Assembly (NCBI GenBank): GCA_019119185.1
Contig: DWXN01000005.1
Coordinates: 45,951 to 109,950, forward strand
Source: Candidatus Eubacterium faecale
GTDB lineage: Bacteria > Bacillota > Clostridia > Oscillospirales > Acutalibacteraceae
DNA length: 64,000 nucleotides
Reading direction: 5' to 3'
Every line of letters starts with the position of its first letter. Within the stretch, counting starts at the first letter, position 1. The notes under the pieces were generated by a model, which saw only the letters and a list, made by a program, of their open reading frames with translations, had not been told where the DNA came from and ran no database searches. This document shows, piece after piece, positions 38,518 to 41,233 of this stretch. The translations under genes and the position numbers were made by a program.

Positions 38518-39363
38518 GTGATAATCATGCTGAAAATCTACAGAAAAAATATTATTTTCTTTTATATTCTCTGCGCCGCGGCGCTCGTTGCCGCCATATT
38601 TGCGGATCTGAAACTGGACATATGGCTCAACGCGCCCGATAACGCGTTTGCCGTATGGTTTTATAACACCGGGGAAATTCCCTGCCGGCTGATCTGCCCG
38701 CTTGCCGGTGCGGCTCTATTCTATTGCTGCCGCTCAAAATTTGCAAGATTCGTTGGCGCCTGCATTTCCATCGGCGGCGGCGCTTATTTCGGGTATTATT
38801 TTGCAGAACATTTTTTCGTTGCGGAAAACCAACTGATCTTCGGCGTTGTTTACGGGATCGGCTTTTCACTCACCCTGATTTTTGCAGGAAGATTTATAAA
38901 AATACCCGAACAGATGAAAAAGCCCATCGCTGCGCTTGCGATTGCGGGAATCGCCGTTATGGCGGCACAGCTTTTGGCAGTGGAAGGCATGAAATACCTT
39001 TGGGGGCGTGTGCGATTCCGCGATCTGCTTGCCGCCGGCAGTTATGACGCGTTTACCCCCTGGTACATCATAAACGGGATCAACGGCAACAAATCGTTCC
39101 CGAGCGGACATACCGGCGGCGCGGCAATGAGTTTTCTTGCCATGTTGCTGCCCTATGTCAGCCAAAAAGCATATAAACACAGGCAATTATGCTTTTATCT
39201 GCCGTTTTTCTACACCTGCGTCGTTGCCGTTACACGTCTGATCATGGGCGCGCATTACCTTTCAGACGTTGCCATGGGCGGCGCAGTGGGCATGCTTACC
39301 GTTGTGATCGCCATGGCAGTGCTGGATAAAAAGATTTTTAACTATAAAAAAACAGCTTTATAA
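38518..39363 (+). CDS. PAP2-family membrane phosphatase
   Basis: KYLWGRVR, SFPSGH, TRLIMGAHYLSDV; promoter TTGATT-17-TATAAT at 38478-38506. Confidence 0.88.
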   Translation: MIIMLKIYRKNIIFFYILCAAALVAAIFADLKLDIWLNAPDNAFAVWFYNTGEIPCRLICPLAGAALFYCCRSKFARFVGACISIGGGAYFGYYFAEHFFVAENQLIFGVVYGIGFSLTLIFAGRFIKIPEQMKKPIAALAIAGIAVMAAQLLAVEGMKYLWGRVRFRDLLAAGSYDAFTPWYIINGINGNKSFPSGHTGGAAMSFLAMLLPYVSQKAYKHRQLCFYLPFFYTCVVAVTRLIMGAHYLSDVAMGGAVGMLTVVIAMAVLDKKIFNYKKTAL

Positions 39364-39378
39364 TCAGGGATGATCAAA

Positions 39379-39621
39379 TCGAATCTCTTCTATTATATTA
39401 AAAAAAAGAACAAGCACAAAAGTGCTTGTTCTTTTCTTGGCGCAGATGAAGAGTTCGCCCGGCTCGCTTTCGCGCTCGCCGGCACGCACCCGGGCACCGA
39501 AACAGTCCACCGGACTGTTTCTATGCTTCGCATTGCCCTTTTCGAATCTCTTCTATTATATTAAAAAAAGAACAAGCACAAAAGTGCTTGTTCTTTTCTT
39601 GGCGCAGATGAAGAGATTCGA
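39379..39621. repeat. Two 79-nt direct repeats (tRNA-Ser 3' end, terminator and inverted T-arm) around an 84-nt hairpin spacer
   Basis: 39379-39457 and 39542-39620 are identical apart from two single-base indels. Confidence 0.95.
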
Positions 39622-39692
39622 ACTCTTGAAACGGTGGTTGCCGTTTACACGATTTCCAATCGTGCTCCTTCGGCCAGCTCGGACACATCTGC
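39600..39692 (-). tRNA. tRNA-Ser(GGA)
   Basis: Acceptor GCAGATG/CATCTGC, anticodon arm CACGA-TTGGAAA-TCGTG, long variable arm, TTCGAAT loop, encoded CCA; own promoter TTGACT-17-TAAATT at 39722-39750. Confidence 0.96.
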
Positions 39693-39778
39693 ATATAAGG
39701 CGGAATAATCACCGCCCATATAATTTACTATATTTTCGGCAATTAGTCAAGTACTGATTTAAAATTATTGCATAATCT

Positions 39779-41233
39779 TTAATCCAAAACCTGATAATAT
39801 GCCGAGAACTGATTGAGTTTTGTTTCAAACTTATCCTTTGGCTGTTCTTTAGGTACTTCAACCGGGTATTTACCCGTAAAGCAACCGTCACAAAAGCCCA
39901 TTCCGGTATTTTCCGCAAGGTGGTGCGTTGCCTCTACAGAAAGATACGCAAGGGAATCCGCGCCGATCACCTGCGCAATCTCCTCCACCGTATTATACTT
40001 ACAGGCAATCAGATGATCACGGCTGTCCACATCCGTGCCGAAATAGCACGGGAATTTAAACGGCGGAGACGAAACGCGCATATGCACTTCTTTGGCGCCC
40101 GCCTCGCGCAAAAGGCTGACGATCCGGGCACAGGTTGTGCCGCGGACGATGGAATCATCTATCATAATCACGCGTTTATCTTTGATATTTTCCCGAATAA
40201 CATTCAGTTTGATTCTTACGGCATCCTCCCGCATATCCTGGCTTGGCTGAATAAAACTTCTGCCGATATACTTGTTTTTGATAAAACCAACGCCATACGG
40301 AATGCCGCTTGCTTTGGAGTAGCCAAGCGCCGCATCCAGCCCGGAATCAGGCACGCCGATCACGATATCCGCATCCACAGGGCTTTCCTTGGCAAGAAAT
40401 TCGCCTGCCTTCATTCTTGCATGCTGCACAGACGCGCCCTCTATCACGGAATCCGGGCGCGCAAAATAGATATATTCAAAAACGCACAAGCCGCACGGCT
40501 TTTCCACACAGTGCGACGTATCGGATTTTATGCCGGATATACTGATCGTCAGGATCTCACCGGGTCTGATATCCCGAATAAAATGCGCTCCGATGGTTTC
40601 AAGCGCGCACGATTCAGACGCCACAACATAAGCGCCGTCCTCCGTTTTGCCGAGGCAGAGCGGGCGAAAGCCCATAGGATCTCTGAACGCGATCAGTTTG
40701 GTAGCGGTCATAACCACGCAGGAATACGCGCCTGTCAGCCTGCTCATGATTTTGGAAACTGCCTCTTCCGTGCTGTTGCTGGTAAGCCGTTCCTTTACGA
40801 TCGAATAGGCAATGGATTCCGTATCCGAAGTGCCGTGAAAAATTGCGCCCTGAAGTTCAAAACTTTTTCTGAGTTCCGCCGCGTTCACAAGATTGCCGTT
40901 GTGCGCTATGGCAAGATTGCCCTTGATGTGGCGGATAACAAGCGGCTGTATATTATTGTGGTTTTTGCCGCCCGTTGTGGAATAGCGCACGTGCCCGATT
41001 GCCATATTGCCTGTGCCGAGCGCATCCAGCTTTTCCTTGGTGAAAACATCGGGAACAAGGCCGTCGCCGCGGTGATGCGTAAATACGCCGTCATCATTTA
41101 CGGCAATGCCGCAGCTTTCCTGGCCGCGGTGCTGAAGCGCAAAAAGCGCAAGATAAGCGGACCTTGCAACCTGGGTCGTTTTATTTTCAAATATTCCGAA
41201 AACGCCGCACTCTTCGTGAATACTGTTAAACAT
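39779..41233 (-). CDS. purF: Amidophosphoribosyltransferase
   Basis: EECGVFG, LQHRGQE, GHVRYST, AHNGNL, VPDSG, DDSIVRGTT. Confidence 0.97.
   Translation of the reverse strand: MFNSIHEECGVFGIFENKTTQVARSAYLALFALQHRGQESCGIAVNDDGVFTHHRGDGLVPDVFTKEKLDALGTGNMAIGHVRYSTTGGKNHNNIQPLVIRHIKGNLAIAHNGNLVNAAELRKSFELQGAIFHGTSDTESIAYSIVKERLTSNSTEEAVSKIMSRLTGAYSCVVMTATKLIAFRDPMGFRPLCLGKTEDGAYVVASESCALETIGAHFIRDIRPGEILTISISGIKSDTSHCVEKPCGLCVFEYIYFARPDSVIEGASVQHARMKAGEFLAKESPVDADIVIGVPDSGLDAALGYSKASGIPYGVGFIKNKYIGRSFIQPSQDMREDAVRIKLNVIRENIKDKRVIMIDDSIVRGTTCARIVSLLREAGAKEVHMRVSSPPFKFPCYFGTDVDSRDHLIACKYNTVEEIAQVIGADSLAYLSVEATHHLAENTGMGFCDGCFTGKYPVEVPKEQPKDKFETKLNQFSAYYQVLD

Follow-up and report, generated by a model that had tools for sequence, protein, structure and literature searches.

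Repeats of 178 bp behind the Escherichia coli tyrT and tyrV genes were reportedly described by Egan and Landy in 1978, and tRNA-linked repeats (TLRs) are said to have been treated again by Rudd in 1999. Their RNA, RtT or RttR, is Rfam family RF00391. TLRs have since been defined by 18–19 bp of 3′ identity to an upstream tRNA or rRNA gene and by a position in a tRNA or rRNA operon, immediately downstream, where a locus has between one and five of them (Stenum et al. 2021, PMC8144298). The same study lists 22 E. coli TLRs in ten loci, stated to be without known function, and describes three of them (the rrA, rrB and rrF small RNAs) between dual rRNA-operon terminators, where they arise by read-through transcription and processing and bind Hfq and CsrA; its authors suggest that the repeated 3′ end directs processing (PMC8144298). 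The E. coli repeats have been unexplained since 1978; small-RNA production has been demonstrated for only three members, whose phenotypes are modest. In E. coli K-12, we found that the region downstream of tyrV is made of three units, each consisting of a spacer, GGGGAAGGAT, a GC-rich hairpin core and the last 19 nt of the tRNA, and that GGGGAAGGAT is the reverse complement of tRNA-Tyr positions 59–68 (T-stem and acceptor segment).

Other systems that copy, target or fold near tRNA genes are also relevant. Integration within tRNA genes is said to fall into sublocation classes, T-loop crossover among them, following Williams in 2002, and the bridge RNAs of IS110/IS1111 elements reportedly carry target-binding loops, as described by Durrant et al. 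and Hiraizumi et al. in 2024. To our knowledge, REPs and attC sites never copy arms from a neighbouring gene. Gene-less derivatives (CIMEs) of integrative elements in tRNA and tmRNA genes stack by accretion; reviews of such elements include PMC5704250 and PMC7563491. Our literature search found the hairpin sequence described below in no paper, and nothing relevant on miniature tRNA-targeting elements.

Here we analyse a window of 64,000 nucleotides (C12:45951–109950) from a genome assembly of Candidatus Eubacterium faecale (1.88 Mb, 13 contigs, 96.5% complete). The window probably contains one full tRNA-linked repeat cassette and the stub of a second, members of a family in gut and rumen Clostridia that is analogous to the TLR/RtT repeats of E. 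coli.

A repeat unit behind tRNA-Ser(GGA)

The original prediction described a tRNA-Ser repeat array, and every element that it listed was recovered by ARAGORN, by repeat search and in the sequence. On the minus strand, from 39692 down, the order is tRNA-Ser(GGA), terminator 1, AT-rich spacer, left arm, core, right arm, terminator 2 with spacer, and stub. The features of the locus are as follows:

39779–41233, minus strand: amidophosphoribosyltransferase-like (purF-like) gene with GATase and PRTase domains (Pfam)
39722–39750, minus strand: promoter-like site TTGACT-17-TAAATT upstream of tRNA-Ser(GGA), a pattern match only (consensus scan)
39600–39692, minus strand: tRNA-Ser(GGA), intact, CCA encoded (ARAGORN; Rfam tRNA, 51.4 bits)
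39563–39599, minus strand: terminator 1, a 10-bp stem GAACAAGCAC/GTGCTTGTTC with a 4-nt loop and a T-run (inverted repeat I3 and reading of the sequence)
39554–39562, minus strand: AT-rich spacer AATATAATA with a −10-like hexamer and no matching −35 (sequence)
39541–39553, minus strand: left arm GAAGAGATTCGAA, reverse complement of tRNA positions ~54–66, that is, T-loop and 3′ strand of the T-stem (inverted repeat I4, 13/13)
39458–39540, minus strand: structured core of type A, 83 nt (folds; covariation on alignment A1)
39523–39533, minus strand: mini-hairpin ATGC-GAA-GCAT (sequence; helix 3 of the covariation alignment)
39499–39521, minus strand: near-invariant hairpin GAAACAGTCC-GGT-GGACTGTTTC with a 10-bp stem, the hallmark of the family (relatives; compensatory variants)
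39459–39482, minus strand: hairpin CCGGCGAGC/GCGAGCCGG with a tandem purine-purine mismatch and GAAA loop, CCGGC..GCCGG (alignment; fully Watson-Crick in ssrA-linked copies)
39438–39457, minus strand: right arm, the last 21 nt of the tRNA (position 56 to CCA) minus one T, hence 20 nt (sequence, repeats)
39401–39437, minus strand: terminator 2, a duplicate of terminator 1 (direct repeat D1, inverted repeat I2)
39379–39400, minus strand: stub of a second unit, consisting of spacer and the 12-nt GAAGAGATTCGA (39390–39379) and broken off at the start of the core (direct repeat D3)
38518–39363, plus strand: PAP2-family phosphatase gene, convergent (Pfam PF01569)

The direct repeat that underlies this layout (39379–39453 versus 39542–39615, 75 and 74 nt) differs solely by one A in an A-run and contains the last 16 nt of the tRNA, the terminator hairpin with its T-run, the AT-rich spacer and motif GAAGAGATTCGA, which is the perfect reverse complement of the tRNA T-loop and 3′ T-stem strand. 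The stretch between the two repeats measures 88 nt (39454–39541), not the 84 nt originally given for the spacer, and the hairpins named for it (GGGCA/TGCCC, ATGC-GAA-GCAT, the 10-bp GGT stem and CCGGC..GCCGG with GAAA) were all found, all on the tRNA strand. The inverted T-arm copies described there are also present, but what had been taken as a second copy belongs to a further unit, of which only a stub is left: the real unit is an inverted arm, a core and a copied tRNA tail. The first unit begins 46 nt past the end of the tRNA. Its left arm (39541–39553) is complementary to tRNA positions 39610–39622 at 13 of 13 nucleotides, and its right arm matches the tRNA 3′ end exactly over 16 nt and at 20 of 21 nt overall, with one deletion. 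Within the type A core, a GGGCA/TGCCC helix encloses two hairpins and is followed by a single-stranded GTGCGTG and a 9-bp hairpin with tandem G.A/A.G pairs.

Neighbouring ORFs and Pfam assignments revealed no recombinase within 3 kb of the unit. A consensus scan of the tRNA strand found no full sigma-70 promoter for the unit, and terminator 1 was not among the calls of an automatic terminator scan. Between the end of the stub and the PAP2 stop codon lie 15 nt of unrelated sequence. Terminator 2 (39401–39437) is symmetric and could act bidirectionally for the convergent PAP2 gene, which ends at 39363, and the duplicate terminator may have been retained for service to that gene.

Further units in the same genome

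Seven units were found at five loci in this genome, including the window. The loci outside the window are:

C6: unit behind tRNA-Ser(GCT), 87–94% identical to the window unit, with the same first terminator and a different second one
C8: unit behind tRNA-Ala(GGC)
C9:9590–10090: two tandem units of different core types behind a 5′-truncated tRNA-Arg(ACG)-like fragment
C9:20715–20830: unit with arms matching the 3′ end of tmRNA (ssrA)

The hairpin of terminator 1 thus also occurs behind tRNA-Ser(GCT) on contig C6. Variant stems, in which GCCC/GGGC or GTTC/GAAC replaces GTCC/GGAC, preserve pairing. The tRNA-Arg(ACG)-like fragment at C9:9590–10090 lacks its 5′ third, and ARAGORN found no intact tRNA-Arg(ACG) in the whole assembly.

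The ssrA-matched unit is separated from the tmRNA gene itself (C9:34600–34948) by a 13.8-kb integrative mobilisable element (C9:20857–34600). This element encodes a MobA/VirD2 relaxase and a two-component system with an ABC/FtsX transporter, and has KAP NTPase, QueC-like and TatD-like genes; its 485-aa large serine recombinase adjoins an 8-nt repeat, CTCCACCA, of the ssrA end.

One hairpin and a constant plan in relatives

The genomes of relatives that we searched are species representatives, and counts in relatives are samples. In 31 of the 36 congeners that were sampled, the 25-nt hairpin is present in multiple, near-invariant copies. An exact search with its 19-mer returned 47, 21 and 9 copies in three congeners and none for the reversed control; a chance origin is excluded because the repeat is 75 nt long and the control gave 0 matches against 9–47 real ones per genome in these three congeners. 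Overall, the 19-nt hairpin core was present in at least 120 genome contigs, mostly from Oscillospirales. Among the contigs listed, most belong to Ruminococcus, Faecousia, Acutalibacteraceae and Oscillospiraceae and few to Lachnospiraceae, and the few 19-mer matches in Proteobacteria look like chance. Carriers of the layout include one complete isolate chromosome. The original prediction had named a spacer that is unique and never tRNA-linked elsewhere as evidence against it; we found the spacer to be multi-copy and tRNA-linked at other loci and in other genomes, and its picture of a repeated, tRNA-linked, non-coding and hairpin-rich module with no recombinase nearby was borne out. With a covariance model of the window core type (R1, 119 positions, cut-off E ≤ 1e-3), matches were obtained in 68 of 101 genomes of the genus, with about 70 full-length matches above 80 bits and usually one to a few per genome.

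The anatomy of the family was derived from 54 non-redundant units behind tRNAs of about 20 isoacceptors. All follow one plan: the tRNA with its CCA, usually a terminator, 5–25 AT-rich nt, left arm, hairpin core, right arm and terminator. Reverse-complemented tRNA positions ~51–54 to 62–68 form the left arm, and the right arm repeats positions ~55–59 to 76 including CCA, exactly over 18–22 nt in about 40 of the 54. Units are ~100–190 nt long, non-coding and placed directly behind a tRNA, a tmRNA or, less often, a protein gene, and the right arm comprises the last 16–22 nt of the host gene (25–52 nt for protein genes), up to the CCA or the stop codon. The left arm inverts host-gene sequence from around the point where this right-arm copy begins, which in tRNAs is the T-loop and T-stem. 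There are at least eight unrelated core types, which have only the hairpin and the plan in common. The type A core alone serves tRNA-Ser(GGA), Ser(GCT), Ser(TGA), Ser(CGA), Gly(GCC) and Glu and, in a shortened form, ssrA, and its arms match the local gene each time. Orientation is equally constant: in all 44 hairpin-containing stretches with a tRNA upstream, the loop has GGT on the sense strand of that tRNA. A tRNA was present in just one other stretch, from a Planctomycetota MAG, and lay there on the opposite strand.

Protein-gene units come after the stop codon of their host gene, with rubrerythrin-like, gyrB-like and rpsI genes among the hosts, and their left arm is an inverted copy of 8–20 nt at or just upstream of the point where the right-arm copy starts. 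At two rpsI units (L036 and L240), the last ~21 nt of the gene are duplicated and two terminators flank the unit; the hairpin module there is inverted relative to rpsI, unlike in tRNA-linked copies. Most units other than those inside operons are flanked by two terminators. The in-operon units have none (Arg(TCT)-unit-His and Val-unit-Asp) and, lying within tRNA operons, must therefore be co-transcribed there.

Fold and constraint

Folded as RNA, the tRNA strand of the window unit reached −50 kcal/mol (z = −3.3 versus shuffles), and folded as DNA −27.7 kcal/mol (z = −3.25 versus shuffles); the opposite strand as RNA gave −44.3 kcal/mol (z = −2.85). In an alignment of 17 type A and ssrA-type units, 85.4% of the helix cells pair compared to 75.2% in column shuffles, none of 500 shuffles reaching the observed value, and 19 of 38 pairs had changed on both sides. 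When the register was slid by 1–3 columns, pairing was only 32–41%. Helix 3, the mini-hairpin, was 96.5% paired, with three of its four pairs changed on both sides, and the single-stranded GTGCGTG between helices was nearly invariant. Ten of the 17 sequences retain the tandem G.A/A.G of the 3′ hairpin, and the ssrA-type copies have Watson-Crick pairs in its place. Because the mismatch would be one between pyrimidines on the other strand, the tRNA-sense strand is the folding strand. A strand count gave 16 G:T versus 23 A:C cells, the A:C cells sitting in misaligned outer columns. Judged from the sequences, fold and covariation fit an RNA as well as a single-stranded DNA.

Different parts of the unit appear to be under different constraint. 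In ssrA-linked units from four species, the core is ~90% identical and the preceding terminator is unalignable, which looks like constraint on the core. The right arm decays, with 1-nt and 2-nt deletions in this genome and three mismatches in one relative (L243), and in 40 of 41 units the complementarity of the left arm extends further with the tRNA gene copy than with its own right arm. Together these make the outer stem look less constrained than would be expected of a processing signal.

Presence, absence and neighbouring mobile elements

Using the neighbouring purF-like gene as anchor, we located the orthologous tRNA-Ser(GGA) locus in 17 cases. It was empty, with tRNA and terminator only, in 11, held a type A unit in two (this genome and one congener) and a type B unit in four. 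Arrays of two to three units are common in relatives, often with a partial last unit; the window array and an independent array in another genome (G120) both end exactly past the left arm, and other arrays end in or after the hairpin. Unit number and presence thus differ between relatives, as the original prediction had proposed to check. Its notion of a mobile cassette is supported in part, by this variation in presence and copy number, but not in the HUH/RAYT mobilisation that it had suggested: PF01797 (Y1/HUH) is absent from this genome and was found in 20 of 46 congeners, unrelated to hairpin copy number, and the 47-copy genome gave only sub-threshold Y1_Tnp matches. PF01548 (IS110) was found in five of 46 congeners, is absent both from this genome and from the 47-copy genome and showed no correlation with units.

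In the 47-copy genome (G032), most exact hairpin copies lie away from tRNAs, in composite MITE-like intergenic repeats of ~300 bp. These repeats (for example, L113:4068–4365) combine terminal inverted repeats of the AAATTATAGTTTA type with other hairpin modules, sit between ordinary genes and are found in many cases at contig ends. Such copies point to the spread of selfish DNA over an RNA function.

The hairpin was also found in 45 'viral' contigs. In IMG/VR contigs, seven of the eight ORFs just upstream of the hairpin encode tyrosine integrases. At the junctions, a prophage attR, its crossover in one case located in the anticodon loop, precedes the host terminator, the unit and the tail. At three of these loci (L252, L255 and L263), predicted viral contigs run past attR into host DNA. 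As viral contigs overrun the prophage attR, the occurrence of the hairpin in them largely reflects prophage boundary calls. Prophages sit between a tRNA or ssrA gene and the unit, as does the 13.8-kb element of this genome. From this placement, we conclude that units are resident host features and that other elements integrate into the upstream gene.

Comparison with described systems

The closest published analogue is the tRNA-linked repeats of E. coli, closer than the REP/BIME or attC elements with which the array had first been compared. As in TLRs, the site is directly behind a tRNA or stable-RNA gene, the copies are tandem, the 3′ end of the gene is copied, the core is a GC-rich hairpin, two terminators are often present and no protein is encoded; the order of inverted arm, core and copied tail is also that of the E. 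coli tyrV repeats. In position, 3′ identity and copy number the Clostridial units agree with the TLR definition: they lie immediately downstream (54 units), share the 3′ identity and fall within the copy number (one and a stub in the window, two to three in relatives). However, they lack sequence or covariance-model similarity to E. coli RtT. The RF00391 model gave no match at E ≤ 10 in the window region and none in the whole genome, with the E. coli control above the cut-off, and the Clostridial family is therefore TLR-like in build and not a sequence relative of RtT. It differs further in being defined by a near-invariant hairpin of its own, with eight or more core types, in occurring also behind tmRNA and protein genes (rpsI, gyrB, rubrerythrin-like) and in reaching up to 47 copies in one genome, partly MITE-like. 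Lastly, transcription has been shown for E. coli members (rrA/B/F and RtT) and is predicted for the Clostridial units.

Integrative elements and CIMEs resemble the units in their direct repeats from the T-loop to the gene 3′ end, in leaving the tRNA intact, in tandem stacking and in having filled and empty sites. In contrast to these elements, a unit measures 100–190 bp rather than kilobases, has no linked integrase and combines one core with many targets and matched arms; its inverted arm, too, has no counterpart in att sites. REP/BIME/REPIN elements and attC sites are likewise short, intergenic, multi-copy imperfect palindromes with structure conserved over sequence. Unlike a REP/REPIN-RAYT system, however, this genome is without Y1/RAYT, and Y1 is uncorrelated with copy number; unlike attC, the units have no cassette ORF or integron integrase context. 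Bridge RNAs offer a geometric parallel, in which two segments flank a structured RNA, one antisense to a target's left half and the other identical to its right half. Here, though, the IS110 transposase is scarce (5/46) and absent from this genome, the unit arms are 10–20 nt long and overlap, and the 'target' is the unit's own neighbour.

Several specific candidates were rejected on other grounds. Rfam families including T-box, riboswitch and small ribozyme classes were dropped after permissive scans of the window region, as had been proposed for it, and of 16 loci with other cores, which returned tRNAs and chance-level matches only. IS91 targeting of the T-loop GTTC was rejected, with protein-gene units having no such tetranucleotide at the junction, and an integron attC was rejected with a T-loop only 6/7 like the core site and no GTT at the right junction. 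The repeats are too short for the template and variable repeats of a DGR and show no adenine-specific differences. An origin from phage attP was discarded, the integrases upstream in seven of eight cases being a boundary effect (attR, then host terminator, unit and tail), as were HUH/RAYT mobilisation, PF01797 being uncorrelated, and an IS110 bridge-RNA element, PF01548 being rare.

Interpretation of the window unit

The family itself, its plan, its fold with compensatory changes, its variation in copy number and presence, and the lack of a known transposase travelling along with it are direct observations. Any model must explain the geometry of the arms, of which one is antisense to the left half of a single contiguous target and the other has the sense of its right half, and also that they end exactly at the gene end. 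With a likelihood that we put at a little under even, the window unit would be transcribed from the tRNA-Ser promoter through terminator 1 and then trimmed near the copied CCA to a stable RNA, with the hairpin as its functional handle, by analogy with the E. coli repeats. This small RNA would be structured as well as stable, and a putative factor would bind its conserved hairpin. The cassette itself would spread and be lost as a duplicative module with arms written from the local gene, for which template switching, gene conversion or a trans-acting recombinase are candidate routes.

We consider it unlikely that the unit is instead, along the lines of the original prediction, a non-autonomous integrative mini-element of the CIME kind, in which replacement tRNA tail, own terminator, inverted arm and core were inserted at the tRNA T-loop by a recombinase acting in trans. 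A variant of this idea involves a folded single strand, of the kind used by CTX phage or attC, on which pairing of the inverted arm with the tRNA tail might restore a double-stranded att core; as single-stranded DNA the element is nearly all hairpins. Direct repeats that run from the T-loop to the exact gene end are like those of T-loop-type integrase islands, the 3′ ends of tRNA, tmRNA and rpsI genes are classical integrase targets, and sites are present or absent among congeners and stack in tandem. Moreover, two tRNA-Ser loci of this genome share a terminator hairpin and are 87–94% identical over the unit, as if the terminator had travelled too. However, the units have no linked recombinase, the Y1 and IS110 transposases are uncorrelated with them, and the integrases beside units in viral contigs are owned by prophages and use a different crossover, in the anticodon loop. 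A single core type with perfectly matched arms at many tRNAs is also a poor fit to a sequence-specific integrase, and the attR side has no second half-site. The ssrA-linked units, with cores ~90% identical in four species and differing terminators, suggest old constrained residents over recent integrations.

More doubtful still is a functionless relic, produced by tandem duplication and replication slips at a strong palindrome next to a highly transcribed gene and kept only as the terminator of PAP2. The indels in the right arm, the partial units cut at varying points at which arrays end, and the symmetry of terminator 2 and its location 15–40 nt from the PAP2 stop codon would all fit such a history. 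Yet slippage cannot give a near-invariant hairpin of 19–23 nt in at least eight unrelated core types and many genera, and it leaves unexplained both the compensatory changes in four helices and the recurrence of one three-part plan behind over 20 different genes.

A further reading, which we offer as a long shot, is that the cassettes are programmable, nucleic-acid-guided insertions: the two arms would serve as a bipartite guide with the geometry of bridge-RNA target loops, and a putative hairpin-binding factor would direct the cassette to the 3′ ends of highly expressed genes of any kind, where it would provide a new gene end. If true, this would account for how a single core type comes to have arms that match perfectly at over 20 tRNAs, at ssrA and at several protein genes with no linked transposase. 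An assembly artefact of this metagenome-assembled genome, which might be suspected from its 13 contigs and from the frequent location of such repeats at contig ends in relatives, is so very unlikely as to be negligible, because the layout recurs with different sequences in dozens of independent assemblies, including a complete isolate chromosome, and here the two repeat copies differ by an indel and unique genes flank the unit.

A second family on the TLR plan

Beyond the single locus and its reading as a tRNA-linked cassette, the Clostridial family is a second, sequence-unrelated family built on the three-part plan of TLRs, in a distant phylum, far more diverse and sometimes at high copy. This argues that the plan has come up repeatedly at stable-RNA genes with high expression, whether as a solution or as a parasite, and against an enterobacterial accident. 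It also provides a comparative handle beyond E. coli, with many core types around one hairpin, arms that track the host gene, empty and filled orthologous sites and copies behind protein genes, and so brings two questions within reach of testing, the way in which arms are written and the nature of the hairpin's binding partner. On the practical side, units in gut and rumen genomes look like att scars, disrupt assemblies and lead to false partial-tRNA calls.

In a relative (L022:1440–1560 on G024:C117), a hairpin module with a closing stem and no gene-end copy lies between two arginine-biosynthesis genes, where it directly precedes the ribosome-binding site of an N-acetylglutamate-kinase-like ORF.
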